Below, in pieces: positions 3,969 through 28,545 of a stretch of 64,000 bases of DNA (the first letter of the stretch is position 1; each line of letters begins with the position of its first letter). Location: positions 2,734 through 66,733 of the forward strand of contig JBEKAY010000013.1 of the NCBI GenBank assembly GCA_050015675.1, given 5' to 3'. The stretch comes from Bacteroidota bacterium. Its GTDB lineage: Bacteria > Bacteroidota > Ignavibacteria > UBA10030. Under the pieces are notes generated by a model. It was not told the DNA's origin, did not search any database, and saw nothing but the letters and a program-made list of their open reading frames with translations. Made by a program: the position numbers and the translations under genes.

Positions 3969-3991
3969 ATTTTTCCAGTTTTCAGTTCTTT

Positions 3992-4078
3992 GTCATTGCG
4001 AGTGACTGAAAGGAGCGAAGCAATCTCATCTTTTCCTCTGTGGTCAGATTGCTTCGTCACTGCGTTCCTCGCAATGAC
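3992..4078. repeat. pair of inverted palindromic repeat units (GTCATTGCGAG-N13-CGAAGCAATC and its reverse complement)
   Basis: Unit 3992-4025 and inverted unit 4047-4078; short direct repeat caatctcat at 4021-4029 and 4101-4109; lies between the GIY-YIG gene end and the hsdR start. Confidence 0.7.
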
Positions 4079-4105
4079 TATGAGACCAAGTCAGGAGAAA
4101 CAATC

Positions 4106-4429: not shown

Positions 4430-4439
4430 AGGTTATAGT

Positions 4440-4570
4440 GTCATTGCAACGAATAAAAGAGCATGTCTATCTTTCTCTTTATCCTTAGTTTTCAGATTGC
4501 TTCGTCGCTGTGCTCCTCGCAATGACTGGAGCTTATCGTCATTGCGAGCGCCGAAGGTGCGTGGCAATCC
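4440..4570. repeat. cluster of the same palindromic repeat family (degenerate half-unit, inverted unit 4495-4526, forward unit 4538-4570)
   Basis: GATTGCTTCG-N11-CTCGCAATGAC followed by GTCATTGCGAG-N15-GCAATCC; between the hsdS stop (4581) and the GIY-YIG start (4429). Confidence 0.65.
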
Positions 4571-4580
4571 TTCCCTTTCG

Positions 4581-5828: not shown

Positions 5829-7896
5829 TATTTTCCTCTAATTGTCTTAGTATTGCTTCTGCTTCTTTTTCTAAATCCCAAAATTCTTTTAGAACATCTT
5901 CTGCCTTGAGTGGTTCTTCATATTGGAAGAAATATTTGTTGGGCAATATTTCATACCCGAGCTGTGGTGTATTGGAAATACTGATAATTGGTTTATCTAT
6001 TTCCCTCTCAACAAACGTTTTAATATCCTCATTGAATGGTATATACTCAAAATCGATAATATACTGCCTATGTGTGAACAGCACCGTTGTTTTCACTTCG
6101 TAAGTGTTTTGCCACCATTTGAAGATTTCGCTTATCTTGAGTTCTTTCGTTTGTTCTGGGAATTTGTTTTTCAATTGTTCTGCAAAGACATCGACAAATT
6201 GTTTTTTCGATGTCAGCGGGAATTCAAATGATATTTCTTTTGCCGTTTCTGTGATAGATGTATTGATGGAAACATGAAAGGTCGCATCGCCGCCGAAAAA
6301 CGCCACCTTTTCATTCACGTTTTTGTTATTTACTTTCGTCGGGAACGGTTCCTTAATCCATGCGGGTGTATCGTTTTCATCGGTTTGCCAGAACACCACT
6401 TCTACCTTATGGAATGCGAAATCATGATAATCGAATATTTTACAGAAATCATTTTCCTGCCATTGATCGTATTGTTCTTCAATCCATTTACGGTGTATTT
6501 TCTCCAAGCGGTGCCGCTTCTGTCCCATGCTTTTCGGTTCATCACTAAACTGCTTACGTGCATTGATTATGAGAACTTTCTGTTTCTTCTTTTCTGGTTT
6601 TGTGTTACTCAGAATCCAGATGTACGTAAAAATGCCCGTATTATAAAACAACTGATCTGGCAACATCACAATACAATCCAGCAAATCATTTTCCAAGATA
6701 TGCCTACGTATTTCGCTTTCCCCGCTTTCTGCATCACCGTTGCTTAACGGAGAACCATTAAAGATGATTGCTATTTTGCTTGCGCCTTCTTTTGGCGTTT
6801 TCATTTTTTGAATCATTGTCATCAAAAAGAGCAAGGCACCATCTTTAATTGTCGGGAAATGTCCTTTGTATCGTGCGTATGAAAGCTTTTTTACTCGTGC
6901 CGCATACTCGCTCCAGTTCACGCCAAACGGCGGGTTACTGAGCATATAATCGAATTTCTTTTTGTCATGGTAATCGCCCCGTTCTTTATATCCTTCTTCA
7001 TCAGGCACTAATGAATTGCCATGCGTAATTCGATTCGCTTCTTCTGCTTTCATCATCATATCTGCTTTACAAATGGCGTAATTCTTGGATTGGCGCTCCT
7101 GTCCGTACAATTCAACAACCGTTTGAATCAGATCCTTTTCTTTATCACTTTTCGCATTCTCCAAAATATGTTCCTTTGCGACGGAAAGCATACCTCCTGT
7201 TCCACAGGCAGGGTCATAAATACTGATAGCTTTGTTTTTGTTCTTCGGGGAAAGTTGAATGTCTAATAATTCTACCATCAACCGTATAACTTCCCGTGGA
7301 GTAAAATGTTCTCCGGCTTCTTCTCCGCTTTGCTCAGAAAACTTCCTCAGGAGTTCTTCATAGACATACCCCATTTCGAGATTGGATAAATCTTTCGGCC
7401 CCAACGGTTCAGTTGAATACTGGCGGAGAATAGATTCAAGAACATCATTTTTCTCCATCGTTTTAATCGTGGAGGTAAATTCAAATTTCTCAAACATCTC
7501 TTCAATATTCGGAGAAAAGCCGTTAATGTAATCACGGAAGTTCTTTTCTATGCGTTTTGCATTGTCATTAACAATCTTCAAAAGTGTCCACTTCGTTTTA
7601 TTCCAAAAAGGAAATTCATCGCATTCGGTTTCCTTGATAAGCTTTTGTAATTCTGCTGTCTTTTTCTTCTTGGTTTTCGGTTTGTCTTTCTCTGTTATCC
7701 GATATTCGGGATACCCTTGTAAAAGTGCCTCTTCTGTCTCTTTGCGTTTATCTTCCAGAACACATTCAATCCGGCGGAGAAGAATAACAGGTAAAATAAC
7801 ATCCTGATATTCGTAAGCCTTAAACTTACCTCTCAGTTTAATGGCCGATTTCCAGATTTCGTCTGCTTTATTGTTTAGTTGTTCATTTGAAATCAT
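5815..7896 (-). CDS. hsdM: type I restriction-modification N6-adenine DNA methyltransferase subunit (HsdM)
   Basis: 693 aa; HsdM N-terminal domain; motif I DPACGTGGML; motif IV LSNPPFG. Confidence 0.9.
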   Translation of the reverse strand: MISNEQLNNKADEIWKSAIKLRGKFKAYEYQDVILPVILLRRIECVLEDKRKETEEALLQGYPEYRITEKDKPKTKKKKTAELQKLIKETECDEFPFWNKTKWTLLKIVNDNAKRIEKNFRDYINGFSPNIEEMFEKFEFTSTIKTMEKNDVLESILRQYSTEPLGPKDLSNLEMGYVYEELLRKFSEQSGEEAGEHFTPREVIRLMVELLDIQLSPKNKNKAISIYDPACGTGGMLSVAKEHILENAKSDKEKDLIQTVVELYGQERQSKNYAICKADMMMKAEEANRITHGNSLVPDEEGYKERGDYHDKKKFDYMLSNPPFGVNWSEYAARVKKLSYARYKGHFPTIKDGALLFLMTMIQKMKTPKEGASKIAIIFNGSPLSNGDAESGESEIRRHILENDLLDCIVMLPDQLFYNTGIFTYIWILSNTKPEKKKQKVLIINARKQFSDEPKSMGQKRHRLEKIHRKWIEEQYDQWQENDFCKIFDYHDFAFHKVEVVFWQTDENDTPAWIKEPFPTKVNNKNVNEKVAFFGGDATFHVSINTSITETAKEISFEFPLTSKKQFVDVFAEQLKNKFPEQTKELKISEIFKWWQNTYEVKTTVLFTHRQYIIDFEYIPFNEDIKTFVEREIDKPIISISNTPQLGYEILPNKYFFQYEEPLKAEDVLKEFWDLEKEAEAILRQLEENNAKV

Positions 7897-8149
7897 AATA
7901 TCTCATCCAGTAACCACCAGCCAGCTTCTTCCTGTAGCTTATTAATATTTAGTCGTGCTTGTTCTTCTTTGTTGCTCACAGTAATAAGAATACTGGACAA
8001 ATTGAGCACATTCAAATTGGTTAAATGCCATCGGCGTTCCATTCAATTCCCCAAGAGCATCTACTAAGAAGTTATGCAAAGCTTCTATCTTGTTCAATCT
8101 TCATTCACTTCATTGTTGGAACAGGTTTATATACTCCGCAAAAACAAAG

Positions 8150-9382
8150 CTACGCCCATAATGCCTGTATCGGAACAGCATAAAGATTCTTCTCAAACGG
8201 AATAACTTCATTTCCATCATACAATACGATGCCGCGCAGAAATTTCTTTTTCATTTCAGCTTCCAGCATCTTCATCGTTTTAAATGATGCTGCATCGACC
8301 CTTTGGCCGCTTTTAACTTCAATACAAACGATACTGCCATCGCGGCGTTCAAGCAGAAAATCAATTTCTTGTCCGGTTTGTGTCCGGAAATGATGTATCT
8401 GCGGCTGTGTCTTGCTCCACGAGATCAGTTTTAACAATTCATTGAGAACAAATGATTCTACAGCTTTTCCCGTAATCTCTCCGTCAGACCGAAGCCGTTG
8501 CTCATCTGCTCCGAGAAGATACAGCATCAATCCGGTATCTGTCAGGTACAACTTCGGTGTCTTAATGAGACGTTTGCTCAGATTTTTAGACCACGGCGTT
8601 ACCAATCGCACAAGGAACGTTGTTTCAAGCAGAGTCATGTATCTTTTTAAGGTCGTCTGTGGAATATTACTGCTATTGGACAACTCGGCGAAATTCAACA
8701 AAGCCCCTGAACGGCTGGCGAGAAGAGCAAGCAGCCGTGGAAGCGCTGTTAATCCTTCGATGTGCATGAGATCTCGGATATCACGCTGCAAGATGGTTGT
8801 TACATACGAACTGAACCAGGAATTCCTGCGAGCCGGATCATCGCGCTGCAATGCTTCAAAATATCCGCCTTTTAACATCCGTTCATTCAATGGATGCCGG
8901 TTGATATTTTTTAAGGAATATTTGGGCATTTTCTCTGCAAAGATATCCTCTGCAAATGATCTCTTTGTTTCTTCGAGTTCACTTTGTGAACATGGGTACA
9001 TGGAAAGTATTTCCATTCGCCCTGCAAGCGATTCAGAAAGCTTCGGAATGAGCAAGACGTTTGCCGAACCCGTTAAAAGAAATTGGCCTGCACTCTTTTT
9101 TTTGTCTATAGAGGTTTTCAATGCAAGAAATATTTCTGGCGCTCGTTGGACTTCATCAATAATGAGCGGCTCTTGATAGCCGGCTAAAAATCCTTCCGGA
9201 TTATTGTGCACGGCGGAGAGAACTACCGCATCGTCCAATGTGACATATCGTGCAGTATGCCCATGCGATGCGAGCCACTCCACCAACGTGCTTTTTCCTA
9301 CCTGCCGGGCTCCATTGAGCAAGACAACAGGGCTATCCTTGAGAGCATCCAGTACTACCGGTGTAATAGATCGCTGTATCAT
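8150..9382 (-). CDS. AAA+ ATPase with DUF4143 C-terminal domain (COG1373 family)
   Basis: Walker A GARQVGKST; Walker B LIIDEVQ; DUF4143-like C-terminal region. The ORF is open to 9466, but the family consensus start matches M at 9382. Confidence 0.7.
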   Translation of the reverse strand: MIQRSITPVVLDALKDSPVVLLNGARQVGKSTLVEWLASHGHTARYVTLDDAVVLSAVHNNPEGFLAGYQEPLIIDEVQRAPEIFLALKTSIDKKKSAGQFLLTGSANVLLIPKLSESLAGRMEILSMYPCSQSELEETKRSFAEDIFAEKMPKYSLKNINRHPLNERMLKGGYFEALQRDDPARRNSWFSSYVTTILQRDIRDLMHIEGLTALPRLLALLASRSGALLNFAELSNSSNIPQTTLKRYMTLLETTFLVRLVTPWSKNLSKRLIKTPKLYLTDTGLMLYLLGADEQRLRSDGEITGKAVESFVLNELLKLISWSKTQPQIHHFRTQTGQEIDFLLERRDGSIVCIEVKSGQRVDAASFKTMKMLEAEMKKKFLRGIVLYDGNEVIPFEKNLYAVPIQALWA

Positions 9383-10182
9383 AAGTGAAACGTAACAATT
9401 TGTATTGAAATAATCAACCAATAAATGGCTGATAATCATCCATACATTGGACGAATGCACATCCACGCCGGTTTCGCCAAATCACGGAAGAACTTAAAAT
9501 AAGGAGAGGCGTTATTTTAACTTGTTCTATGAGCCTAAAATAAGGATTTTAATTAAGTAGCAGGGGAAGAATATTCTCTTTTTTTCATTGGAATTCGCTC
9601 AATGGAGCTTCCACAACTAGGCTAAGTTCGGATGAGCTCCCTTTTATCCCGATGTGCGCTCCTCAGCATCCCGCTCTGTTTGCGGGACTTTTTATCGGGA
9701 CACCCGCTACTCGAGCGGCCGATTCTGAAAAGTTTCGGCATTTTTTTTCGTCACCCCTCAACGAACCCACGATTTTATACTTCCACGAATAATAAATCTT
9801 GGATCCCCCAAATAAAAATCTGATTCTCCGTGATGTTTTTCTCTCAGTAAACAACTGGAAGAACGATGTTTGGTTTTTATCATACAAGTTTAATGCGAGA
9901 CATCTCCTCTGCTATAAAGAATAATCGTCTTCACGTGAGTTTAAGAATCTCATCTATTTTTGAAAAGTTGAACAAAACACTGAGATTATAGTCAAAATTC
10001 AAAGTAATTTTATTTTTCCCCCCTGCTGGGAATAAATTTACACTTTGCTTTGTTATAATACATAATGAAATATTCTCATTTGGAGTTTGAGAATAAGTGC
10101 GACCGTATAGTTCATCATCTGATCAATTTTGATCTATAAGTATTATAACCAGGGGAGTATTACGCGTTACATTCAATGACTT

Positions 10183-11109
10183 ATGGATGACAATCATTCT
10201 ATACTATCTGATGATATCATAAAAACCATCGCTTATTTTAATGTGTTTAGGTATCCGCTCACAGACGAACAGATTTACCGATTCCTCCCGCGGAATTCCG
10301 TTACGAAAGAACAAGTTTCAGATATAGTAAAACGTTTAGTTGGAGACGGCATTCTTGATGAATATAACAATTATTATTTTCTGCGGTCTGAAGACAGGGG
10401 AATCGTCGCACAAAGAAATATTAATGAGAAGCGCGCGCATAAAATGATGAAATATGCGCGGTTTGTTTCCATGTTGTTAAAACAGTTTCCCTTTACTCGG
10501 GCTGTCTTTATCACAGGATCGCTCTCAAAAAATGTTGCCGCTGCAGATAGCGACATCGATTTTATGATCGTTACGGCTGAAGAGCGATTGTGGATCTGCA
10601 AAACATTTTTAACATTTTTCCGAAAAATTTTCCTCTTGGGAAGCCATAAATTTTTTTGTACCAATTTCTACATTTCTGAAAAAGAATATGCTCTCTCAGA
10701 GCGCAACATGTATTCTGCAATCGAATTGCTCACAACCAAAGTCATGTGGAATATTCCATCCTTTTTAGAATTTCAGCGGGCAAATTCATGGACAAAGGAT
10801 TTTCTCCCAAACTGTACGCCCTCTATCGATTCGACCGTTGTGTTGTCGCCGTCGCGTTCATTGTTCCAGCGACTCATTGAAAGGGTCTTGAATCTCTTCC
10901 CGCTGGAAGCAATGAACCAGTTCCTGATGAACCGCTATAGACGCCATTGGAATAAGTTCTATAATGATCTTGCTGAAGAAAAACGAGCGAAATCTTTTCT
11001 CACTTCGCCGAATGTTTCAACCGTATGGAAAATCGACTATCATGGGATTATCATGAATAAATGCAACGACAAACTATCCGAAATCGGATTGAAAGATCTG
11101 TATGATTGA
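10183..11109 (+). CDS. Pol-beta superfamily nucleotidyltransferase domain protein
   Basis: 308 aa; hG[GS]-x10-DhD motif (ITGSLSKNVAAADSDIDFMIV); first gene of a six-gene overlapping cassette. Confidence 0.5.
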   Translation: MDDNHSILSDDIIKTIAYFNVFRYPLTDEQIYRFLPRNSVTKEQVSDIVKRLVGDGILDEYNNYYFLRSEDRGIVAQRNINEKRAHKMMKYARFVSMLLKQFPFTRAVFITGSLSKNVAAADSDIDFMIVTAEERLWICKTFLTFFRKIFLLGSHKFFCTNFYISEKEYALSERNMYSAIELLTTKVMWNIPSFLEFQRANSWTKDFLPNCTPSIDSTVVLSPSRSLFQRLIERVLNLFPLEAMNQFLMNRYRRHWNKFYNDLAEEKRAKSFLTSPNVSTVWKIDYHGIIMNKCNDKLSEIGLKDLYD

Positions 11110-12565
11110 TGTTCTCATGGCCCATTCCTTTTTCATGCATTTCGATCCAAAGCAACTGCGAGCAATGATGCCGTACCCGCCACTGGGAACATTGTACGCC
11201 GCGAGCTTTTTGGAAAAAGACGGAATATCGGTGCGCCTTTTCGATGCCATGCTTGCACGGAGTGAAAACGATATCCGTGCGTCTCTTGAAGAGCATCATC
11301 CCTCGATCGTCGCTTTTTATGACGATGACTTCAACTACCTAAATAAAATGTGCTTAAGCAGAATGCGCGAAGCGACTTTTGCGATGACTGCAATAGCAAA
11401 GGAATATGGAGCATTTGTCATTATTCATAGTTCGGATGCAGCAGACCATGCAAAAGCGTATCTGGACCATAGCGCCAATGTGATTGTCATCGGCGAAGGG
11501 GAACAAACGCTTCGGGAACTGTGTCGAGCAGTTCTTCGGGAACACCGTTTCGATTTCTCTGCCATTGGTGGAGTGGCCTTCAAGAAGAACGGAACGACGA
11601 CTCATTCTCCGCGACGAATCGTGTTAAAGAATCTAGATGATCTGCCGTTTCCTGCATGGCATTTTGTAGATGTTGAAAAGTACAAAGCTTCATGGAAACG
11701 CAAGCATGGATTCTATTCGGTCAACATGGTCACGACTCGCGGATGTCCGTTCCATTGTAACTGGTGCGCAAAACCGATTTATGGCCAGGTCTATAATTCA
11801 CGATCACCGCAGAATGTTGTCGAAGAAATAAAACTCCTCCAACAGACAATCCGACCGGATCATATCTGGTTTGCGGACGATATTTTCGGCTTGAAGCCCG
11901 GATGGATTCAAGCGTTTGCCTCGCTCATCGAAAAAGAGAACATTTCAATTCGGTATAAAATTCAGTCGCGTGTCGACTTGTTGCTGGAACCCGACACCGT
12001 TCGAGCATTGGCGAGATCAGGCTGCAGCGAAGTGTGGGTTGGCGCCGAATCTGGTTCGCAAAAAATATTAGATGCTATGGATAAGGGAACGAAAGTCGCC
12101 CAAATTTATGAAGCGCGCAGATTGTTGCAACAATATGGCATCAAGACTGCCTTCTTTCTGCAATTCGGTTATCTCGGAGAGCAGCAGGAGGACATCAATG
12201 CCACAATTCGTATGGTGAAAGATCTTATGCCCGATGATATCGGCATTTCCGTTTCCTATCCATTGCCGGGCACAAAGTTCTTTGAGAAAGTAAAAATGGA
12301 TATGAAAGAAAAACAAAATTGGATAGACTCCGACGACCTTGCGATGATGTATCGAAGCACTTTTTCTCCGGTGTACTACAAGCAACTGCATCGTTATGTG
12401 CATAAAGTATTCCGCCTACGCAAGGGATTATTGATGTTGTGGCACCTCATCTCCCGCAAAGCAACATTCGGATGGATTGAGATACGTCAAGTGATATTGA
12501 TTTTTTATTATGGACCGGGTAGCATTATTGATCGATGTAAACTACTCTATTACCAAACAGCATGA
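11102..12565 (+). CDS. B12-binding (class B) radical SAM enzyme
   Basis: N-terminal cobalamin-binding-like domain, then CxxxCxxC (GCPFHCNWC) radical SAM core; overlaps the upstream gene by 8 nt. Confidence 0.8.
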   Translation: MIDVLMAHSFFMHFDPKQLRAMMPYPPLGTLYAASFLEKDGISVRLFDAMLARSENDIRASLEEHHPSIVAFYDDDFNYLNKMCLSRMREATFAMTAIAKEYGAFVIIHSSDAADHAKAYLDHSANVIVIGEGEQTLRELCRAVLREHRFDFSAIGGVAFKKNGTTTHSPRRIVLKNLDDLPFPAWHFVDVEKYKASWKRKHGFYSVNMVTTRGCPFHCNWCAKPIYGQVYNSRSPQNVVEEIKLLQQTIRPDHIWFADDIFGLKPGWIQAFASLIEKENISIRYKIQSRVDLLLEPDTVRALARSGCSEVWVGAESGSQKILDAMDKGTKVAQIYEARRLLQQYGIKTAFFLQFGYLGEQQEDINATIRMVKDLMPDDIGISVSYPLPGTKFFEKVKMDMKEKQNWIDSDDLAMMYRSTFSPVYYKQLHRYVHKVFRLRKGLLMLWHLISRKATFGWIEIRQVILIFYYGPGSIIDRCKLLYYQTA

Positions 12566-13386
12566 CGACGGTAGCTACAGAAAGAGAATCTAATATTGAA
12601 CTGACGAGCGCAGCGTTTTCGGCGCAGGCGGCACATTTTGATACTGATGAGGAATCCAATCGCATTTTGAAATGGATGCGGGAACAAGTCTATCGACATG
12701 AAGAAGAATTTCTGCTGCCGCACAGCAATATTTTAGAACTCAACGCAGGAACCGGCATCGACGCTATTCATTTTGCCCGGATGGGACATTCTGTCTTTGC
12801 CATCGATAACGCACCGGGTATGATACATCAATTACAGAATAAAATTTCAACCTATCACTTTGAAGATCGAATTAGATCTGCTCTGTGTTCGTTTACACAA
12901 TTGCAGACATTGCCGGTAGAACAATTCGATCATGTCTTTTCAAATTTCGGCGGTTTGAATTGCATCCCAAATTTACAGGAGGTTATATCTCAGCTTCCCA
13001 GATTATTAAAGCCAGGCGCGACAATCACCTTTGTCATAATGCCGCGGATCTGTCCATGGGAAATAGCGCAAGCCTTCAGGGGGAGAATACGATTAGCGTT
13101 TCGAAGGTTTCCACGAAACGGTACGTCTGCCCACATTGATGGACATAGATTCTTGTCGTACTATTATTCACCCTCACAAGTGATAAAGATGTTCGGCGCC
13201 AGATTTGTTCTTGCTCGGCTTCGTGGATTGGCATCATTTTCACCACCGCCGTATTATGATACTTTTCCTGTGAAACATCCACGTATATACGACTTGCTGA
13301 CCGGATTGGATGAAGGATATTCTACACTTCCGCCTTTAAACAGATGGGCGGATCATTTTATCATAACTATGAAATATCTACCGTGA
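12562..13386 (+). CDS. class I SAM-dependent methyltransferase
   Basis: Motif I LNAGTGIDAIHFARMG; ATGA overlap with the radical SAM gene. Confidence 0.7.
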   Translation: MTTVATERESNIELTSAAFSAQAAHFDTDEESNRILKWMREQVYRHEEEFLLPHSNILELNAGTGIDAIHFARMGHSVFAIDNAPGMIHQLQNKISTYHFEDRIRSALCSFTQLQTLPVEQFDHVFSNFGGLNCIPNLQEVISQLPRLLKPGATITFVIMPRICPWEIAQAFRGRIRLAFRRFPRNGTSAHIDGHRFLSYYYSPSQVIKMFGARFVLARLRGLASFSPPPYYDTFPVKHPRIYDLLTGLDEGYSTLPPLNRWADHFIITMKYLP

Positions 13387-14195
13387 AACAAATTCCTTTC
13401 TCTCAACAGTTTGTTGAATATTTTCGAGAAAAAAGATATATCCATGAAGCTAACCTTTGGTTGGCACAGTCCCCTGAATCGAATTTCTCGATTGAAGACA
13501 AGTATCATACACTTCGGGACAAAGAAGGATGGATATATTCGGATGCAATCGTTGAACAACTGCCCATCATCGCTCAGAGTGATCCCCATTATGCACAATG
13601 GCTTGTTCGAAAAAACTCATTTCATCGTTTCGTGCACTATCTTATCGCTCAACATCCTGGTAGTGCAGTATTAGATGTGGGGTGCGGCAGTGGGTGGATG
13701 GCAAATGGACTTTCAAAAAAGGGTTTTCAAGTATATGCAATCGACCTCAATTATCATGAATTGCAGCAGGCAGCGCGTATCTTTGGTGAGACAACAAATG
13801 TGACCTGGCTCTATGGAGATATATTATCAGATGTTTTACCTCATGACTCAATGGACTATGTTGTCATGGCGAGTTCGCTGCAATACTTTGTCAATATTTC
13901 ACCATTGATGGAATCGTTATTCCGGATACTTCGTGATGCCGGCGAGATTCATATTATCGATACACCGTTTTACTCGGCCAACAAAAAGGACAAGGCCGCT
14001 CAGCGATCAAGAGCGTACTATGCAAGTATCGGGTGTCCCGATTTTGCAAATCATTATTTTTATAGAACCTATGATGAGCTTCGCGACTATTCCTTCCGTG
14101 TGCAGTATCATCCTAAACGAGTGATGAACAAAGTAAGTAATTTTCTCGGGCAGGGAGGATCTCCATTTCCATGGATTATTATTCAAAAGTCGTGA
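13344..14195 (+). CDS. class I SAM-dependent methyltransferase
   Basis: Motif I LDVGCGSGWMANGL; acidic motif II AIDLN. Confidence 0.7.
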   Translation: MGGSFYHNYEISTVKQIPFSQQFVEYFREKRYIHEANLWLAQSPESNFSIEDKYHTLRDKEGWIYSDAIVEQLPIIAQSDPHYAQWLVRKNSFHRFVHYLIAQHPGSAVLDVGCGSGWMANGLSKKGFQVYAIDLNYHELQQAARIFGETTNVTWLYGDILSDVLPHDSMDYVVMASSLQYFVNISPLMESLFRILRDAGEIHIIDTPFYSANKKDKAAQRSRAYYASIGCPDFANHYFYRTYDELRDYSFRVQYHPKRVMNKVSNFLGQGGSPFPWIIIQKS

Positions 14196-15988
14196 CACGC
14201 CAACTTCGGATGCTGAAAGATTCTTTCAAAAAAGTAGCTCACCTTCTAAGCAAAAAACAGAAGAGAACGTATACCATCTCAATAATATTTATGTTTCTCA
14301 GTTCCCTGCTTGAGCTTTTTACTATCGGCCTTCTTGTTCCCTTTCTCGGAATGATTATCTCTCCTGCATCATGGATGCACTACACTTGGATCGCATCGTT
14401 TCTTTCCCCATTTAGATCCTTATCTTTTCCCGATCTCATTCTTATTTTGGGAATAGTTCTATTTTCATTGTTCATCGTCAAGAATGGTATAAGTTATTTT
14501 TTATATTCGTATTACAATCGATTTGTCTATTCATTAGCGACAGAGTTGGCAGAGAATAAATTGCGCCACTATTATTCACTTCCATTTCTCGATTACCAAA
14601 AAAGCAACACAGCGGAAATACTTCGGGAAATCTCTTCCCTTCCGATTGAGTTCGCCCATCATATCATCCTGGGAAGCATGATTATTCTCTCAGAATCGAT
14701 GGTACTGACCTTGTTTGCGGCAGGAATGGTAGTGCTTCAATTCCGAATGTTTTTAATGATGATATCCATACTGCTTCCGTTTGTATTCTTGGCATGGTAT
14801 GCCAGCGGCCGGTTTTTGAGAAAAGCGAAAGAGACTATTCAGCAAAAAAGTCCAGAGAATTTCAGCACCCTTTCTGACGCATTGTTCGTTTTTCAGGAAA
14901 CAAAATTATACAACAAAGAAAAATATTTCTCCGACCGATATGTTATTGGGCAGCGTGATCTCAATCTTCAATTGGGAAAACTTAATGCCGCAAATGCTAT
15001 CCCGAGCAAGTTATCGGAAATATTTGCAATTGCCGGAATTCTGCTCATACTCTTCTTCTATTATTCGTTCGAAGGACAATTAACAATATCCGTCGTGTCC
15101 CTCCTGACAATGTTTGTTGCATTCGCATATCGGGCTATTCCCTCCATTAATAAAATTCTAAATGCGGCGGTACATATGCGCACGTATTCTTTCACGATAG
15201 ACGCCATGCCGACCGCTCAAGGTGCAGATATACAAATATCACAACCAGATGATGGGCTTTATTCTCCACTGCAGTTTATAAAGGCAATTGATTTACGCCA
15301 TATCACATTTTCATATCCACAAAGAAGAAAAGCTGTCCTCGACAACCTTACATTGCATATTGCAAAAGGAGAAATTATCGGACTTGTCGGACACTCAGGA
15401 TCGGGAAAAACCACGTTGATGAGAGTCCTTGTCCAATTGATCAAGCAATATTCGGGCACTTTGATGCTTGACGGCAATGAGCTTCACCCCGCTGACATTC
15501 ATTCTTGGAATCGACTCTTCGCCTACGTGACACAGGACTCTTTTATACTTTCTGATACAGTTGAAGCAAATATTGCATTTGGAATACCGAAATTCTCAAT
15601 CGATACTGAAAGAGTCCATGAAGTGCTGCAAAGAGTTGGACTTGCGGATTTTGTGAGTAAACTTCCCGATGGTATTTATACCCGTGTGGGAGAACATGGA
15701 AAAAATATTTCAGGAGGACAGAAACAACGTTTCATTATTGCGCGTGCATTATATCGTAATGCCGAAATATTCATCTTTGATGAAGCTATGAGTGCGGTGG
15801 ATTCTGTTTCTGTTCAAGAAGTGTTGAGAACACTTTCATCACTTCATCGTGAAGGAAAAACGATCATCATCGTTTCACATCACCAAAATTCGGTGTCACT
15901 GTGTACCAAGATCTATTCGTTAAAACAAGGAAAACTTCAGGTAATCCCACACCCACACACAACAAAAAAACGAGGAATAATGAAATGA
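14171..15988 (+). CDS. ABC transporter, fused permease/ATP-binding exporter (MsbA-like type I exporter)
   Basis: Six predicted N-terminal TM segments; Walker A GHSGSGKTT; signature ISGGQKQR; Walker B IFIFDEAMSAVD. Confidence 0.85.
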   Translation: MDYYSKVVTRQLRMLKDSFKKVAHLLSKKQKRTYTISIIFMFLSSLLELFTIGLLVPFLGMIISPASWMHYTWIASFLSPFRSLSFPDLILILGIVLFSLFIVKNGISYFLYSYYNRFVYSLATELAENKLRHYYSLPFLDYQKSNTAEILREISSLPIEFAHHIILGSMIILSESMVLTLFAAGMVVLQFRMFLMMISILLPFVFLAWYASGRFLRKAKETIQQKSPENFSTLSDALFVFQETKLYNKEKYFSDRYVIGQRDLNLQLGKLNAANAIPSKLSEIFAIAGILLILFFYYSFEGQLTISVVSLLTMFVAFAYRAIPSINKILNAAVHMRTYSFTIDAMPTAQGADIQISQPDDGLYSPLQFIKAIDLRHITFSYPQRRKAVLDNLTLHIAKGEIIGLVGHSGSGKTTLMRVLVQLIKQYSGTLMLDGNELHPADIHSWNRLFAYVTQDSFILSDTVEANIAFGIPKFSIDTERVHEVLQRVGLADFVSKLPDGIYTRVGEHGKNISGGQKQRFIIARALYRNAEIFIFDEAMSAVDSVSVQEVLRTLSSLHREGKTIIIVSHHQNSVSLCTKIYSLKQGKLQVIPHPHTTKKRGIMK

Positions 15989-16557
15989 ATCCGTTATTGC
16001 TTTTGTATTGTCTGGTCGTGACGCTCGTATCTTTGGCCCTCATTCTCGCTTATACGAAGTTTCATCGATTCAAACGAAAGGTTGCTCTGCACGAAGATCA
16101 TTTCTCTCGATTAATTGAAATTGCGAAACAATCACTCAAATCACTCGATGTACCTATTGGCACCATCCTTCTCTACAAAGATAAGATTATCGGAGAAGGA
16201 TACAATACGGTTCTTCGCAATGCAAAAGCAGGTGAACATGCGGAAATAAACGCCATATCTGATGCAATGAGCAAGATGGGAATAGAAACTTTTTTTTCAC
16301 TGGAGAGGGATTCACTAGTGCTGGTTTCGACATTTGAACCGTGCGTGATGTGTGTGGGAGCTTTCATCAATTATAATATTCAACATGTGTACTTTCTCAC
16401 AGAAAAGGAATTTTTATATACCGGAAAAGAACAAGCTCTCTTCCTCCGTTATCTCTTTCGGCGTAAACAAGTTAAACATTGCAATGAACAAGATTCATTG
16501 TTCGAAGAACATCCTGGCTATCCACATAAAATAATTGGAATCCCTATCGAAAGATAA
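15985..16557 (+). CDS. membrane-anchored CDA-fold nucleoside/nucleotide deaminase (TadA/guanine deaminase-like)
   Basis: N-terminal hydrophobic helix (MNPLLLLYCLVVTLVSLALILAY); zinc-binding HAE (HAEINAI) and PCxxC (PCVMCVGA) motifs; ATGA overlap with the ABC gene stop. Confidence 0.7.
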   Translation: MNPLLLLYCLVVTLVSLALILAYTKFHRFKRKVALHEDHFSRLIEIAKQSLKSLDVPIGTILLYKDKIIGEGYNTVLRNAKAGEHAEINAISDAMSKMGIETFFSLERDSLVLVSTFEPCVMCVGAFINYNIQHVYFLTEKEFLYTGKEQALFLRYLFRRKQVKHCNEQDSLFEEHPGYPHKIIGIPIER

Positions 16558-16588: not shown

Positions 16589-17719
16589 TCATTGGCGCTC
16601 GTTCTGTTCTCTTATTTCGTTATACAATTTTCTATGTTTGAAACAAGTCCACTCACCGTTATGCACTTCTGCAAATGATCTATTTCGTAATCGAATGTCC
16701 GGGAGGTATTCTGGATGCTCGAGCAAGCGTTCAATTTTCTTCACTAATCCTTCTGCGTCTTCCGGCGAAACCATAACGTTTTCGTCGCCGACATCTGCGA
16801 GTAATCCTACTTTTGTTCCGACCACAACGACACCGGACGCAAAAGCCTCCATGACAACGACCGCCTCTCCTTCGTATCGAGACGTCAAGAGAAGAAAATC
16901 TGAGTTATGTAATTCGGCGGGTATTTTTTCGTAAGGTATTTTTCCTTTCCACAGAATTTTATCATCGACTCCAAGATCACGTGCATATTTTAGAACTAAA
17001 CCATTCAGTATGTCTAAGCCGATAATCGTAAGCCTGCAATTGATTATTCGGCTAAGAAGAGAAAATGCTTTCACCAATGTAAATGGATCCTTTACTCTAT
17101 TTATATTACCGATAAAAATGAACTGGAGAGGCTCGACAAGTGCGCGCGGATGATATGTAAAGATTGATGGATCGACTCCAAAAGGAATCACCGACAAATG
17201 TTGAGGCGAAATTCCATGCGCATCCAGCAGGTTTTTTTGATACTGCGTGAGCACGACGACGTGATCGGCGTTTTGGATACACCATCGAACCATCATCTTT
17301 TTAACGGGATGAGACATACTACCATACCGAATCGACGGCAAATACACAATGTCACCTCCCGGCAAGCTGACAATACTAGGAATATGCAATATCTTCCCGG
17401 TTATGACAGCTACGAGCCCTTGATTAAATATCCAGAAACCATGGACAGCACTGAATTTTGCTTCTCTGTTATCTGCTCTTATCCGCCAGAGAAAATATAT
17501 GAATTTAAGAAGTTTATTCTTTTCCAATATCTTTGGCGGAAAAACGAAGGAACACTGACGCGACAATAATATTGGATGCGGAGTGTGTTGCGAAAAGGAG
17601 TAAATGCGAAGATGATAAAATTCACTTAAACGATACAGCAAATCAATGAGTGATGGAATATTATCGTTAATCTCAATACCACCAGGCACCACTATTACTA
17701 GATTCGATTTATTGTCCAT
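16589..17719 (-). CDS. glycosyltransferase family 4 (GT-B)
   Basis: C-terminal E-x7-E motif (EGEAVVVMEAFASG). Confidence 0.8.
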   Translation of the reverse strand: MDNKSNLVIVVPGGIEINDNIPSLIDLLYRLSEFYHLRIYSFSQHTPHPILLSRQCSFVFPPKILEKNKLLKFIYFLWRIRADNREAKFSAVHGFWIFNQGLVAVITGKILHIPSIVSLPGGDIVYLPSIRYGSMSHPVKKMMVRWCIQNADHVVVLTQYQKNLLDAHGISPQHLSVIPFGVDPSIFTYHPRALVEPLQFIFIGNINRVKDPFTLVKAFSLLSRIINCRLTIIGLDILNGLVLKYARDLGVDDKILWKGKIPYEKIPAELHNSDFLLLTSRYEGEAVVVMEAFASGVVVVGTKVGLLADVGDENVMVSPEDAEGLVKKIERLLEHPEYLPDIRLRNRSFAEVHNGEWTCFKHRKLYNEIREQNERQ

Positions 17720-17725
17720 GGAGAG

Positions 17726-18781
17726 CTATTCACTCTGACATTTTTTTTGCAATAACTCTCTTGCAATCTTGATGACGAAATCCGGTGTGTGACGTGTTAA
17801 GCAATGAACATCGCCAAAACGGCACAATGGCTGGGCGCATTCTCCGCAATCGAGATCAGACGAATCGAGACACACAGAAAACCCGCCTATCGGCTTCGAC
17901 CATATACTCTTCGTCGATCCGAACAGCGCAATGACAGGAATCTGAGATATCCATGCCATATGCATTAATCCGGAATCTTCTGTAAGAACCAAGTCTGCTT
18001 TTTGCAGAATATTAAATGCTTCCGCCTGTGTTGTCATGCCGACAAGCGAAATAAGGTTGTCGCCCAATCGGTTCTTCAGAAATTCTGCTTTTGCAAGAAT
18101 CGCATCTACACCGATCACAGCGAATTGAACATTGGTCTCAATAGTCTCCAGCCAGGTTCGAACAAACTGAATGTAATATTCCAGTGGCCAATTCTTTGTT
18201 ACGAAATTCCCCGCGGGATTTAAAACGAACAGTTTCTTTGCAGGATTGAAATTGGATGAGAATAGCTTGTTAAGTCCTATTTCGTTATCGCGAAGTTCAA
18301 GCTTGGGCAACGCATTCGGTAACGGTGCAAAACCGAGTTTATCGATTGTGATTTTTATCCGTTCACCAGCGGTATGCAAAGAGAACCGATCGTATTCACA
18401 AAAACTTCTTGGATGTAGCACCCTTCGAATCATCCGACTCAAAGGATTTCGCTGCAGGTCGAGCACTATATCATATCGCTCTCGCATCAATGATGGCAGA
18501 CTTCCGAAAGCATAGAACCATTGTTGTTTCGAATTTCTTCCGCCGCCAATCGTATATACTCGATCGAACAACTTCATATTGCACGGAAGTGGAGAAAACT
18601 CTCCCCGCGTTAAAAAATGAAATTGTGTCGATGGCAATATCGCTTGCAGTGCCTGCATATACGGTAAAGTGATAACCACATCACCGAAAGAGTGAAAGCG
18701 CATCACTAGAACCTTCTTCGGCGGCTTTGATAATATCCACGAACGATGCTCGAATGATTCGATGGTTGGAGGTGTTTTCAT
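17726..18781 (-). CDS. glycosyltransferase family 9 (heptosyltransferase-like)
   Basis: GT9 hallmark DSGLMHMAWISQIPVIALFG near the C-terminus. Confidence 0.8.
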   Translation of the reverse strand: MKTPPTIESFEHRSWILSKPPKKVLVMRFHSFGDVVITLPYMQALQAILPSTQFHFLTRGEFSPLPCNMKLFDRVYTIGGGRNSKQQWFYAFGSLPSLMRERYDIVLDLQRNPLSRMIRRVLHPRSFCEYDRFSLHTAGERIKITIDKLGFAPLPNALPKLELRDNEIGLNKLFSSNFNPAKKLFVLNPAGNFVTKNWPLEYYIQFVRTWLETIETNVQFAVIGVDAILAKAEFLKNRLGDNLISLVGMTTQAEAFNILQKADLVLTEDSGLMHMAWISQIPVIALFGSTKSIWSKPIGGFSVCLDSSDLDCGECAQPLCRFGDVHCLTRHTPDFVIKIARELLQKKCQSE

Positions 18782-18975
18782 GGGTTTTTTAAATTGATAT
18801 GAACAAAGAACATGTTTTCTTCCTTAAATAACGTTCCAGTCCATAGCACCTTATTCATTCAATTGCGTCACCCCTTTCAAAAACGATCCAGTACTATAGT
18901 AGGGAAAAATATAATTTGGATCAAAGGAGATAACTAATTGCCGGAAAAGATATAAAGCAGATGAAAAATTTCGTT

Positions 18976-20160
18976 TTACCCACGCGTAAATTCAATCGTA
19001 CGTGAAAGAAGAGAAGGAAATCCCGCAAGCGCCAATCCGCTTACCTTCTTCCCCAGCCGTGAAAGAAGTACTTGTTGAATTTCTTTTGCAATCCGAAGCC
19101 GTCGCTGAAAACTTGATCTCCATCGCTTGGTATACAGGCTCGATAAGGCATCGCAGTTCAACGCCTTTCTTCTCCCTTCATCCAGAACAGAAGCGATAAT
19201 TTTTGCACTTTCCATGGCCATACCGATCCCATCACCGGCAAGCGGTGCAATAACCTGGGCTGCATCGCCAATCATGAATATTCCATCTTCGACAAGATTT
19301 TTCTTTCCGAAATAAATATCGCCCGAGCCATAGATCGGAAATGAAGAAAGCATGTTTTCAAAATCTCCGGATATCGCTTGAGCAAAATATTGGTTCGCCT
19401 TCAGCAGCTCGGTGATCTTTGCTCGCGGTTGAATGTCATTGGGAGAACGCTCTTCAAGAAAACAGAGAGTCACGGTGTCGTCATTTACGACATTCACTCC
19501 GCAATACATGTTGCGTCCGGTATAAATTTGAATTTCATGTTGCGGAACATTTGGCAGATATTTTTTGTGGACATGGAATTTAATGCCATTTAATCGAGAC
19601 CGGCTTTTCCTGTACGTTCTATGTAGTGTCTTGTCCAACGAGAGAGATTTTCCATGCGCAACAATCACATGCCGTGCAGTGATATTTTCCGTTCCTCCTG
19701 GTACCGCAAGAGCGACATTGTACGCTCCTTCGGTATGGTGAATGGCTTCGACCGTCTTCGGTTGATAGATCAACGCACCAGCCTTGCGTGCATTGTCGAG
19801 CAAAAACGAGTCAAACACCCCGCGTTTCAATCCATATGCAGTAAATGGAAGTTCAGTGGTGTACGATTGTGAATATTCCGTACAAAACCGGAACGAGGTC
19901 AACGGATTTGGATGAAGCAAATGAAAGCCCTCGCTGAGATGCAGTTCTCCAAGGATCTGTGAGACTTCTCTTGAGAGAAATTCTCCGCATAATGTCTCTC
20001 GTGGAAAATCTTTTTTTTCGATAACACACACCCGAAAGTTCATCTGGGCAAGGTACAACGCTACAGTGGAGCCAGCCGGTCCGCCACCCACGATAGCAAT
20101 ATCAATTTGTGGATCCGTCAAGTGAGTTTCACAATACACACAAGCCAACGGAACGCCCAT
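18976..20160 (-). CDS. FAD-dependent oxidoreductase (geranylgeranyl-reductase / flavin hydroxylase family), SrsC-like position
   Basis: FAD-binding GxGxxG (IAIVGGGPAGS); GDAA-type motif MIGDAAQV; ORF open to 20202, start chosen at MGVPL. Confidence 0.7.
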   Translation of the reverse strand: MGVPLACVYCETHLTDPQIDIAIVGGGPAGSTVALYLAQMNFRVCVIEKKDFPRETLCGEFLSREVSQILGELHLSEGFHLLHPNPLTSFRFCTEYSQSYTTELPFTAYGLKRGVFDSFLLDNARKAGALIYQPKTVEAIHHTEGAYNVALAVPGGTENITARHVIVAHGKSLSLDKTLHRTYRKSRSRLNGIKFHVHKKYLPNVPQHEIQIYTGRNMYCGVNVVNDDTVTLCFLEERSPNDIQPRAKITELLKANQYFAQAISGDFENMLSSFPIYGSGDIYFGKKNLVEDGIFMIGDAAQVIAPLAGDGIGMAMESAKIIASVLDEGRRKALNCDALSSLYTKRWRSSFQRRLRIAKEIQQVLLSRLGKKVSGLALAGFPSLLSRTIEFTRG

Positions 20161-20810
20161 GTCCGTTGAACAGTATATGATGCCGATGGAAGCGAAGCGC
20201 ATAGACGCAAGAGTTCACTTCGCGTAAAGCCTCGCCGTACGGAAAGCGGCCCATCGTTTTTCACCATGACACTGCGGGAGAATAGTCGTGTAAGGAGGTA
20301 AATGCCGAGGTAAGCGAATAACGAGCGACGCAGATCATTGATAACAATGCCGAATCGAGCTGTTGAATACAAAGATGGAAGAATGTGATGTAATTCCTGT
20401 TCTGTAAAATGATGAAGAAACAGCGAGGCATGAATGATATCGAATGTCTGTTTATGAAAAGGAAGATCAAGAACAGATCCGTGAACCACTGTAAGAGACG
20501 GGTTCGCCTGCGCGGCATATGCGCATGCCCGCTTATTGAGATCAAGAGAGGTAATTTTTATATCAGAATGCACAGACGAAATAGCTTGCGCAATATCAGA
20601 GCCTCCTGCCCCTACATCAAGAATCGAAAGCGTGTTTGCGGGAGGTTTCTGTTTCAACAAAGTTTTGACCCCCTTGCGTGATGTAGTGTTCCCGCCCAGC
20701 CAAGTATTGATGACACTCAGTTCTCGAAATGCCTCATCAAGACGTCCATCCTGGATCGTCACATCATCCATAATTTCTTTTTGTGCGCTTCGCGGAAGTA
20801 CTCCCATCAT
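20118..20810 (-). CDS. SAM-dependent methyltransferase, SrsB-like position
   Basis: Motif I ILDVGAGGSDIA; its ATG forms an ATGA overlap with the PKS stop at 20807-20810. Confidence 0.7.
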   Translation of the reverse strand: MMGVLPRSAQKEIMDDVTIQDGRLDEAFRELSVINTWLGGNTTSRKGVKTLLKQKPPANTLSILDVGAGGSDIAQAISSVHSDIKITSLDLNKRACAYAAQANPSLTVVHGSVLDLPFHKQTFDIIHASLFLHHFTEQELHHILPSLYSTARFGIVINDLRRSLFAYLGIYLLTRLFSRSVMVKNDGPLSVRRGFTRSELLRLCASLPSASYTVQRTWAFRWLVCIVKLT

Positions 20811-21895
20811 ACACCTTTCAAGAATGCGACTTCCATCGTTAATCCCGGCCCAAAAGCGATCGCGCATACATCTTCCCCCTTACGAATCGTTCGTGTGGCA
20901 AGAAGTTCTTTCATCACGAATAGAATGGATGCCGACGACATATTCCCATAATTTTTGAGAACTGTCCGTGAGGGTTCCATCTCTTTATCGCTCACATTCA
21001 ATCCCACTTGTAAGGCATCGAGGATCACTCTACCGCCGGGATGTAATACCCAGTGATGAATATTCTCAGAATCCAATCCGTTCAGTGTGAATAATCTGCG
21101 TAGTACCGGGATCGCCTCTTCGGAAATAATTCGTGGCAGTTCGGAGGAGAGCATCATTTCAAAACCGAAATTACCAATCTTCCATCCCATGTATTCCGAT
21201 GAATTTGGAAAGAGATAAGAATGCGTGCGCATCAATTGCAAGCGTGGTGAATACACCGAAGCATTCGAGAACAACGCGACAGCACATCCATCTGCAAAGA
21301 TCATATTTGCCAAAATGTTATCGCGGGTCGGTTCCGTCTGCAAATGGAGACTGCATAATTCTACGGCAATAAGGAGCGTAGTGCTCTTTTCACTCTCGGC
21401 GGTCCGAAGCGCTTCAAGCACCGACGTGAAACCGACAAGTGCCGCGGCGCATCCCATAAACCCGATATGTGTTCTTTGTACGGATGCAGGGAGATGAAAT
21501 TCATTCATTAAATAATAATCGATTCCGGGTGCATAAAAACCCGTGCACGATACGGTGATAAGCCGAACGACGGAAGAAGGATCGCAATGAGTCTCCTCAA
21601 GCAAACGTCCGACTGCATCTTTTGTCAGTGTCTTTGTCCATCGCTCATATTCAATCATTCGCGATTTTGTGTCGGGCGTTTTGGCGCCTGCATCCGTGGA
21701 ATAAAATCGCCGCGGAGATGAAGGATCTCCGTCAGGAACAACCACATAACGTGTATCAATACCGGAATGCTGGGACGCGGCATCGATCAGACGTGCAATC
21801 GCAGGACGAACTGCCATGCGGACTTTGAGTTCTTCTGCAGCCCTGGCTTGACTTACTTTATATGGCGGCGATGCCGTTGATATATGAATAAGCAT
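20807..21895 (-). CDS. type III polyketide synthase (chalcone/stilbene synthase family)
   Basis: 362 aa; active-site Cys context (VSCTGFYAPG); CHS-family C-terminal signature HWVLHPGGRVILD...YGNMSSASILFV...FGPGLTMEV. Confidence 0.8.
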   Translation of the reverse strand: MLIHISTASPPYKVSQARAAEELKVRMAVRPAIARLIDAASQHSGIDTRYVVVPDGDPSSPRRFYSTDAGAKTPDTKSRMIEYERWTKTLTKDAVGRLLEETHCDPSSVVRLITVSCTGFYAPGIDYYLMNEFHLPASVQRTHIGFMGCAAALVGFTSVLEALRTAESEKSTTLLIAVELCSLHLQTEPTRDNILANMIFADGCAVALFSNASVYSPRLQLMRTHSYLFPNSSEYMGWKIGNFGFEMMLSSELPRIISEEAIPVLRRLFTLNGLDSENIHHWVLHPGGRVILDALQVGLNVSDKEMEPSRTVLKNYGNMSSASILFVMKELLATRTIRKGEDVCAIAFGPGLTMEVAFLKGV

Positions 21896-28536: not shown

Positions 28537-28545
28537 TGGTTCACC

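Follow-up and report, generated by a model that had tools for sequence, protein, structure and literature searches.

A conserved nucleotidyltransferase and class B radical SAM gene pair in a variable gene cluster of Ignavibacteria and relatives, with a possible role in envelope-glycoconjugate tailoring

In fosfomycin biosynthesis, the cytidylyltransferase Fom1 works with Fom3, a class B radical S-adenosylmethionine (SAM) C-methyltransferase that acts on a nucleotide-tagged substrate, and with FomD, a cytidine monophosphate hydrolase. Among envelope pathways, PglK belongs to Campylobacter N-glycosylation, MsbA to lipopolysaccharide (LPS), HepA to heterocyst glycolipid export, and WbdD to the terminal methylation of ABC-dependent O-antigens. 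To our knowledge, no characterised class B radical SAM enzyme takes part in envelope-glycan synthesis or is paired with a Pol-beta-type nucleotidyltransferase (NTase). Here we analysed a six-gene operon at positions 10183-16557 of a 64,000-nucleotide stretch from a Bacteroidota bacterium (Ignavibacteria, UBA10030; GenBank assembly GCA_050015675.1, contig JBEKAY010000013.1, positions 2,734 to 66,733 of the forward strand), referred to as the window. The conserved core of the operon is a nucleotidyltransferase gene (NT), followed by a class B radical SAM gene (rSAM) and usually by a methyltransferase gene (MT1); a second methyltransferase (MT2), an ABC exporter (ABC) and a deaminase are accessories. 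We propose, with moderate confidence, that Ignavibacteria, Kryptonia and related Bacteroidota share a variable cluster for tailoring and exporting an envelope glycoconjugate, of which this cassette is the local form, and whose product would be an LPS-core-, O-antigen-, extracellular polysaccharide (EPS)- or glycolipid-like polymer.

The open reading frame (ORF) listing gives the six genes as follows:
10183-11109, + strand: NT, nucleotidyltransferase, 308 aa
11102-12565, + strand: rSAM, radical SAM enzyme, 487 aa
12562-13386, + strand: MT1, methyltransferase, 274 aa
13344-14195, + strand: MT2, methyltransferase, 283 aa
14171-15988, + strand: ABC exporter, 605 aa
15985-16557, + strand: deaminase, 190 aa from ATG (longest ORF form from GTG at 15901)

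The ORF listing bears out the six plus-strand genes and their overlaps as first described, and the Pfam and NCBIfam scans bear out their domains; the genes make up a single co-directional, overlapping operon. By their coordinates, they overlap in order by 8, 4 (ATGA), 43, 25 and 4 (ATGA) nt. The arrangement as a whole is far above chance, and the NT-rSAM core recurs in species-level genomes. The MT2 and ABC starts used here are longest-ORF starts and the lengths of homologues vary (MT2, 255-283 aa; ABC, 585-617 aa), so the overlaps of 43 and 25 nt are less certain than the 8-nt and the two ATGA overlaps. Since deaminase homologues start at a methionine immediately before the transmembrane (TM) helix, the ATG at 15985 and its ATGA overlap are favoured. 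An NT/rSAM overlap of 8, 4 or 1 nt also occurs in the gene calls of relatives. The GC content of the window shows nothing unusual.

To place the operon among its relatives, we ran an NT-alignment pattern scan with one genome per species, fetched 80 loci, and analysed the neighbourhoods by local tblastn and ORF clustering, with gene-family counts over 76 loci. NT relatives are encoded in 339 species genomes, and the fetched loci derive mostly from Ignavibacteria, Ignavibacteriota, Kryptoniota or organisms named only "Bacteroidota bacterium". The rSAM gene follows NT directly in about 59 of the 67 loci with at least 2 kb of downstream sequence, and it is far better conserved than NT (47-81% versus 32-50% identity). 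MT1 was found in 47 of the 76 loci, followed by two glycosyltransferase (GT) families, GT9 (30) and GT4 (19), and then by the deaminase (17), ABC (10) and MT2 (7). GT9 and GT4 are thus better-conserved partners than the last three. The idea of a fixed six-gene cassette, as put forward in the first-pass annotation, was not sustained, because only NT-rSAM(-MT1) is kept. Its expectation that the six genes would co-occur elsewhere comes close to failing if taken literally, as a single fetched locus (L027) holds all six together, while the core co-occurs very widely.

Comparison of individual loci shows that the cluster is a mosaic. The nearest relative, L089 (NT 82.5% and rSAM 87.6% identity), has the order NT-rSAM-MT1-MT2-ABC with no deaminase; its convergent arm encodes a methyltransferase, a SPASM radical SAM protein, an MTS-type methyltransferase, a second B12 radical SAM protein and a GT4. 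In L029, rSAM, MT1, MT2 and ABC are 68-79% identical to those of the window, and NT is 43.5% identical. The exceptions to NT-rSAM adjacency are of several kinds: three loci (L009, L010, L016) have a nucleoside diphosphate (NDP)-sugar-type epimerase gene (NAD-epimerase/dehydratase) in place of rSAM, three (L064, L071, L084) are Kryptonia-type, and the others involve a truncated NT (L048), an IS200-type insertion (L074) or a frameshift (L036). In five loci from different Ignavibacteria species (L035, L038, L043, L054, L081), an IS200-like Y1 transposase of about 154 aa (PF01797) lies between NT and rSAM, so the coupling is interrupted there without loss of either gene; in L074 such a transposase lies farther downstream of NT. 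A MazF/PemK-type toxin gene was also seen inside the cluster region of two Ignavibacteria loci (L043, 12967-13332; L076). Upstream of NT, the genes reflect lineage-specific housekeeping synteny, including Crp, ScdA, Rpe, a PASTA-domain protein, UvrC and Tricorn protease.

NT has a weak match to the Pol-beta NTase family (PF01909, 22.5 bits against a cut-off of 21), and its motif G112-S113...D124-x-D126 is invariant in a 17-sequence alignment. In the AlphaFold2 (AF2) model (pLDDT 89), an N-terminal winged helix (residues 1-70) bearing an invariant YF..F.YPL motif is followed by a long helix, a minimal NTase core and a helical C-terminal domain. With both the hG[GS]x9-13Dh[DE]h motif and the alpha-beta core fold, NT belongs to the Pol-beta superfamily and is of the kanamycin nucleotidyltransferase/minimal nucleotidyltransferase (KNTase/MNT) type, with an intact active site. 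Its best Foldseek matches are MNT antitoxins, none of them at E<=1e-3, and there was no sequence-level match among PDB chains. A LicD/fukutin-type phosphotransferase identity was considered and dropped, as the LicD family profile gave no support. A profile search of 1.84 billion representatives returned 5901 NT-family clusters (50% identity) at E<=1e-3. In the homology search with the NT protein, the homologues with source names come from Bacteroidota and Ignavibacteriales metagenome-assembled genomes (MAGs).

The NT family, and the cassette with it, is assigned to glycan biosynthesis mainly on two grounds, namely NT gene fusions and the genes downstream of NT. Among the best 150 of the 5901 clusters, NT is fused as GT4+NT, Bac_transf+NT, NT+NAD-epimerase/dehydratase and methyltransferase+NT. 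Bac_transf is an initiating polyprenyl-phosphate sugar-phosphate transferase, and one Bac_transf::NT gene lies within a classical GT4-GT4-Wzy_C-(Bac_transf::NT)-epimerase cluster (L090). Downstream, a recurrent layout in Ignavibacteria comprises NT, rSAM, MT1, a GT87-type GT-C, GT9, a Wzx-like flippase, a second B12 radical SAM enzyme and a methyltransferase. Some loci add a YaeI/LpxG-like membrane metallophosphoesterase, a PMT_2-type GT-C, a SPASM radical SAM protein or a deaminase-branch amidohydrolase, and Pfam identified recurring families as GT87, Polysacc_synt, PMT_2 and the YaeI/LpxG-like metallophosphoesterase. Wzy_C (O-antigen ligase/polymerase-like) flanks the cluster in L086 and L088. 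Of the 48 loci with at least 8 kb of sequence downstream of NT, 31 encode at least one of GT9, GT4, GT87, ABC and Wzx on that side within 10 kb; the same glycan-assembly families occur upstream of NT in 1 of 45 loci.

The window itself carries a convergent glycosyltransferase pair directly beyond the operon, which the earlier six-gene account did not include:
16589-17719, - strand: GT4 glycosyltransferase, Glycos_transf_1 88.8 bits, convergent to the operon with 31 nt between stop codons
17726-18781, - strand: GT9 (heptosyltransferase-family), Glyco_transf_9 (PF01075) 70.5 bits

Across the relatives, GT4 appears mostly as GT4<GT9< straight after the plus-strand block, and these partners point to a surface-glycan function. 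The best NCBIfam matches of GT4 are EPS/LPS GT4 enzymes, all under their cut-offs. GT9 falls within the GT9 family but below the equivalog cut-offs of the LPS heptosyltransferases WaaC/WaaF/WaaQ (heptosyltransferase II, 79.5 bits against 134.6; I, 73 against 185.3; the third model of the set, 45.6 against 170.2). ABC (ABC_tran, 110 bits) is a full-length exporter/flippase of the MsbA/PglK/HepA type. Its architecture and superfamily agree with these proteins, and its scores against their equivalog models lie below the cut-offs (MsbA, 257.7/602; PglK, 257.5/1000; HepA, 246.7/725), so orthology to any of them was not reached. It occurs in 10 loci, and a Wzx-like flippase stands in its stead in 9 others. 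Taken together, the GT4, GT9 and ABC genes of the window and the GT87, PMT_2, Wzx-like, Wzy_C and epimerase genes of relatives have the make-up of an envelope polysaccharide or glycoconjugate cluster. As the core recurs beside sugar-transferring and lipid-flipping genes across hundreds of Ignavibacteria-like genomes, the cassette most likely decorates a cell-surface sugar polymer.

The rSAM protein has a Radical_SAM match of 68 bits with the cluster motif CPFHCNWC. Its B12-binding match (24.5 bits) is below the 32.1 cut-off, and PF02310 is precomputed for most homologues. With a CX3CX2C motif in a Radical_SAM domain behind a B12-binding domain, it is a class B enzyme. The NCBIfam matches are all far under their cut-offs: BchE (138 bits), HpnJ (129), the ladderane-lipid radical SAM enzyme (113), the P-methylases (103-111, against cut-offs of 575-600) and MgmA (101), with HpnR also among the best and with weak matches to the C-methyltransferase models rSAM_ocin_1 (80) and ApyD (84) for ribosomally synthesised and post-translationally modified peptides (RiPPs). 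The nearest solved structure is 9ccb (E 3e-21), described in its paper as MgmA, the MCR glutamine C-methyltransferase. The evidence on a methylase subfamily is therefore mixed, since the nearest structure is a methylase and the top models, below cut-off like the others, are BchE and HpnJ. MT1 (Methyltransf_25/11) and MT2 (Methyltransf_25/11/23) are both class I SAM methyltransferases and share 25% identity. In-frame rSAM::MT1 fusions of 757-779 aa (P0283, P0285, P0291, P0295, P0302, P0303, P0308, P0314 and L088, 10920-13193) occur in the lineage whose NT is nearest to that of the window, and the window genes differ from the fused form solely by the ATGA stop/start overlap.

In the Pfam and NCBIfam scans, no protein of the operon reached any curated NCBIfam equivalog cut-off, and no curated NCBIfam family covers NT or the rSAM subfamily of the window. 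The domain classes assigned at first stood, and a curated subfamily was reached for none of them. The earlier statement that the combination fits no pathway that could be named holds as well, in that all equivalog scores were far below cut-off. Likewise, the literature searched, a limited collection, contained no description of the cluster or of a fixed pairing between a winged-helix Pol-beta NTase and a class B radical SAM enzyme. That glycan clusters can contain tailoring enzymes is already known; it is this pairing inside them that is undescribed in that literature.

Several points weigh against a glycan function. About one third of the complete loci have no recognised glycan gene within 10 kb, and in many Ignavibacteria the NT-rSAM pair is separate from the MT1/GT block. 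The downstream enrichment was computed with ad-hoc ORF families and with the upstream flank as sole control. Judged by sequence, all family scores of rSAM, ABC, GT9 and GT4 are well under the equivalog cut-offs, and BchE and HpnJ are non-methylating class B members that act on tetrapyrrole and hopanoid, respectively. We know of no Pol-beta-type NTase in glycan biosynthesis, and the known sugar-activating nucleotidyltransferases have a different fold from NT. Every chemical step proposed below would follow by analogy, and the case for the deaminase within the pathway is one of co-location.

With these reservations, a stepwise scheme may be outlined by analogy with KNTase chemistry on sugar hydroxyls and with the logic of Fom1, Fom3 and FomD; it is tentative, and we consider it rather doubtful in this exact form. 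NT would nucleotidylylate a hydroxyl or phosphate of a sugar-type intermediate, either soluble or polyprenyl-linked at the cytoplasmic face of the membrane. The class B enzyme would then carry out a radical reaction at an unactivated carbon of the nucleotide-tagged substrate, cobalamin-mediated C-methylation being the likeliest. MT1, joined in the window by MT2, would add O- or N-methyl groups, GT9 and GT4 would build or extend the acceptor, and the ABC protein would flip or export the lipid-linked product. A more specific version, in which the cluster encodes an undescribed route to a C-branched or radically modified surface-glycan sugar, with a KNTase-like nucleotide handle, a cobalamin radical SAM enzyme and servicing by a membrane-tethered deaminase, appears improbable at present. 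In several Ignavibacteria, a conserved protein of 155-160 aa with a signal-peptide-like N-terminus and no Pfam match (our ORF family f7; 14 loci, for example L035 at 18572-19048, L040, L059 and L065) is encoded directly upstream of the block that holds the second rSAM, MT1 and GT genes. It has no homologue in the window and may act either as an acceptor protein or as a component of the periplasm.

The same enzymes could instead tailor a membrane lipid or phenolic lipid, with rSAM methylating or rearranging a chain of alkyl, isoprenoid or hopanoid-like type, glycosylation of the lipid by GT9 and GT4, and export of the glycolipid by a HepA/MsbA-like ABC protein. The HpnJ, ladderane and HpnR matches of rSAM would suit such a function, as would ABC scores on HepA and MsbA that are as high as on PglK. 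In addition, GT9-GT4 is directly preceded on its own strand, across a gap of 194 bp, by a minus-strand set at 18976-21895 that encodes a type III polyketide synthase (PKS; DpgA-like, 154 bits, below cut-off), a class I methyltransferase (PRK06202-like) and a geranylgeranyl-reductase-family FAD oxidoreductase. We take this set to resemble srsABC/ars-type alkylresorcinol (phenolic lipid) operons. However, none of the 92 other loci checked had its genes; the adjacency is thus peculiar to the window, and a functional link to this set was dropped. Moreover, no squalene-hopene cyclase (SHC), acyltransferase or prenyltransferase recurs in the clusters, and among the best 150 NT-family clusters the fusion partners are sugar-phosphate transferase, GT4 and NDP-sugar epimerase, never lipid enzymes. 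We therefore regard a lipid-tailoring role as unlikely, and a glycolipid, were it the product, would fall partly within the glycoconjugate function that we favour.

A diffusible product, either nucleoside- or aminoglycoside-like or a RiPP, was also weighed. Class B radical SAM enzymes, aminoglycoside nucleotidyltransferase (ANT)-like enzymes, cytidine deaminase (CDA)-fold deaminases and ABC exporters are all found in aminoglycoside and nucleoside antibiotic clusters. In such a pathway NT, rSAM, the methyltransferases and the deaminase would tailor the compound and ABC would export it. The weak rSAM_ocin_1 and ApyD matches, and the extra SPASM radical SAM proteins and methyltransferases of some relatives, are consistent with this view. 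By contrast, the cluster is inherited over hundreds of species in housekeeping synteny, unlike sporadic biosynthetic gene clusters; no scaffold enzyme recurs (non-ribosomal peptide synthetase, PKS, cyclitol synthase or nucleoside core enzyme), and the recurring partners GT-C, Wzx, Wzy_C and GT9 are envelope-assembly proteins. The ABC protein has no N-terminal peptidase domain, the PglK model spanning its residues 19-587. A search for ORFs of 20-130 aa across 86 loci including the window yielded shadow ORFs and unrelated synteny genes, none involving the window, and no conserved small ORF in or beside the cluster. The RiPP variant was thus rejected, in line with the earlier remark that no precursor peptide was obvious: no such ORF is common to the window and another locus, and none recurs next to NT. 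A natural-product function is, in our judgement, very unlikely.

The deaminase is the least certain member of the cluster. It has a CDA fold (dCMP_cyt_deam_1, 62 bits) with conserved HAE and PCxxC motifs, and Foldseek ranks guanine deaminase of B. subtilis first (GuaD, E 8e-10), ahead of ADAT2, TadA and yeast cytosine deaminase. In the AF2 model (pLDDT 89), residues 3-29 form an N-terminal TM helix, and the sequence after it is rich in K/R; under the positive-inside rule, the modelled catalytic domain should lie in the cytoplasm. This TM helix and CDA fold bear out the architecture first read from the sequence. The label TadA-like was right for the catalytic core and failed beyond it. Identity to E. 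coli TadA is 30-39% over TadA residues 2-113. In all family members the E. coli protein can be aligned only through its residue 104, and a 7-residue deletion takes away the GARDAKTGAAGS segment. TadA contacts tRNA through the segment that follows PCxxC (GAxDxKTGAxGS) and through a C-terminal helix, and the gap falls at that segment; the TadA model scores 57.3 bits against a cut-off of 150. On these sequence features, namely the model score, the end of the alignment and the segment gap, a housekeeping TadA identity was rejected. The family has an invariant C-terminal motif of its own, K141...Q169..L172-F173..H176-P177. NCBI names its relatives "nucleoside deaminase", and the automatic JGI label is TadA.

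Whether the deaminase shares a function with the other five genes is a closer question. The six genes may not form one functional unit, the deaminase being a lineage-wide housekeeping nucleobase or nucleoside deaminase that sits at the operon end in one clade; we consider this a serious possibility, a little short of probable, and it is compatible with a glycoconjugate role for the remaining five genes. The deaminase occurs in just 17 of the 76 loci and is absent from the nearest relatives, L089 and L029. TM-anchored TadA/GuaD-like proteins of about 181-183 aa with the same K...Q..LF..HP motif are widespread in other Bacteroidota (L087, 10001-10546; P0233; P0220; P0217). Relatives at 40-47% identity lie after the aerotolerance operon bat/moxR beside plsY (L087, P0233) or beside ornithine decarboxylase (P0220), so the family is not obligately tied to NT-rSAM. 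On the other hand, the gene stays the last plus-strand gene despite MT2/ABC insertion and overlaps ABC by ATGA in the window. In a comparison made by hand, at least 24 of 47 deaminase-family matches on contigs of at least 8 kb come from a contig equal in length to that of an NT or rSAM match, putatively the same one. In a distant Bacteroidales MAG, an NT-rSAM-MT-rSAM-MT-Wzy_C cluster again has the deaminase close by, some 0.5 kb away from its end and in a different orientation. Furthermore, forms with the TM helix go with clusters that contain GT4/GT9 and forms lacking the helix with clusters that do not, and two clusters without the deaminase carry a non-homologous deaminase-branch amidohydrolase instead. 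This last replacement suggested the idea that the deaminase may clear 5'-deoxyadenosine or S-adenosylhomocysteine from the SAM-consuming enzymes; it may also edit the base of the nucleotide handle, or be merely co-transcribed.

Upstream, the operon is separated from a defence island (1041-9466) by a long spacer:
9467-10182, no strand: non-coding spacer and presumed promoter region, 716 bp, flanked by the operon and by the divergent ATPase gene of PDC-S01 type

As initially reported, this region is non-coding: none of its ORFs is conserved in a related locus, and Rfam gave no match at E<=1. The region is not itself conserved, relatives having other genes upstream of the operon. It contains one sigma-70-like match (10037-10066) and a terminator-like hairpin (9669-9687), with site counts not above the shuffled expectation. 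A riboswitch or leader was ruled out on the Rfam result and on promoter and terminator scans at shuffled background. The hairpin, on the plus strand, is GC-rich and followed by a T-run. No plus-strand gene precedes it, and it may be a remnant or mark where an unannotated small transcript ends.

The island itself consists of a minus-strand type I restriction-modification (R-M) system (hsdR, 1041-3968; hsdS, 4581-5828; hsdM, 5815-7896) and an AAA_14/DUF4143 ATPase (8150-9466, - strand) that matches the PADLOC candidate system PDC-S01 (E 1.6e-158). Its proximity raises the idea of a conflict, defence or RNA-modification module in which the NTase and the TadA-like deaminase act on nucleic acids. 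MNT-type NTases and deaminases are known in toxin-antitoxin and defence systems, the MNT antitoxins head the Foldseek list of NT, and in PADLOC, NT has two marginal matches to the candidate defence family PDC-M05A (E 1.7e-4 and 8.5e-4), which cover some 27 residues at the NTase motif. Nevertheless, neither rSAM nor the deaminase had a PADLOC match, and for the others there were, beyond those of NT, only generic matches to methyltransferase (mad2) and ABC-ATPase (mad3/mad8) models. The R-M/ATPase neighbourhood is peculiar to the window, the relatives having Tricorn protease, Wzy_C, Crp, Rpe or UvrC upstream, and the cluster lies in stable housekeeping synteny, not in variable islands. The deaminase lacks the TadA tRNA-binding segment and is missing from most clusters. 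The conflict-system option raised in the first-pass annotation was accordingly given up on the PADLOC scan and the missing R-M adjacency, and we hold it to be extremely improbable.

On the other side of the operon, minus-strand genes at 25792-31769 encode a DegT aminotransferase, a hexapeptide acetyltransferase, a GFO/IDH/MocA oxidoreductase, a UDP-sugar 6-dehydrogenase, an epimerase fragment and a GT4. This set is, we assume, typical of diacetamido-uronic-acid sugar synthesis and looks like a WbpA/B/D/E/I-type route. The fragment is a 218-aa ORF (29995-30651) that covers only positions 181-259 of the 347-position UDP-GlcNAc 2-epimerase model and is possibly a truncated gene. With these nucleotide-sugar genes, the window has a surface-glycan region of about 20 kb, which has the cassette at its edge and runs to the vicinity of tRNA-Leu.

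Class B radical SAM enzymes count among the least assigned groups of enzymes, and one of their subfamilies here has a fixed genetic partner. Throughout a poorly cultivated lineage (Ignavibacteria, Kryptonia and relatives), the context of the NTase/rSAM pair is consistently one of envelope glycans, which offers enzymologists a defined pair and a testable class of substrate. If the proposed function is right, radical cobalamin-dependent chemistry would join bacterial surface-glycan synthesis and would explain unusual methylated or branched sugars. As far as we know, no class B radical SAM enzyme and no Pol-beta-type NTase has so far been assigned to envelope-glycan biosynthesis, and these would be the first of either kind. 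If it is wrong, the cluster would still be a widely conserved operon and not a curiosity of the window. Our analysis also defines a TM-anchored TadA/GuaD-like deaminase family, widespread in Bacteroidota, which automated pipelines label TadA.

Compared with known systems, the parts of the cluster are familiar in outline and differ in detail. The deaminase shares the HAE...PCxxC zinc site and the CDA fold with TadA and GuaD, whereas it differs from TadA in its N-terminal TM anchor, the loss of the GARDAKTGAAGS segment and its own C-terminal motif. Relative to the kanamycin nucleotidyltransferase ANT(4') and to MNT/MntA, the window NT has an extra N-terminal winged helix and a genomic role that appears biosynthetic rather than one in resistance or toxin-antitoxin function; unlike MNT/MntA, it is without a HEPN partner. 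The rSAM protein has the N-terminal B12-binding Rossmann domain and the CX3CX2C core in common with the class B methyltransferases MgmA (9ccb), GenK, TokK and CysS, yet it scores below every curated subfamily cut-off and its best models are non-methylating. As in pathways of the PglK/MsbA/HepA/WbdD type, a half-transporter-type exporter is encoded beside glycosyltransferases and methyltransferases, and its similarity to the PglK and MsbA models is full-length. In contrast to PglK, MsbA and HepA, this exporter is dispensable in the family and swapped elsewhere for Wzx-like flippases, and, in contrast to WbdD, the window cluster has no kinase domain. With respect to fosfomycin biosynthesis, the transferase domain of Fom1 differs in fold from the Pol-beta/MNT-type NT, and the window has no phosphonate genes and a context of glycan assembly, not of an antibiotic. 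The shared feature is that, as for Fom1 and Fom3, the genes of a nucleotidyltransferase and of a cobalamin-type radical SAM enzyme are coupled; the YaeI/LpxG-like phosphodiesterase of some related clusters could, in parallel with FomD, remove the nucleotide tag.

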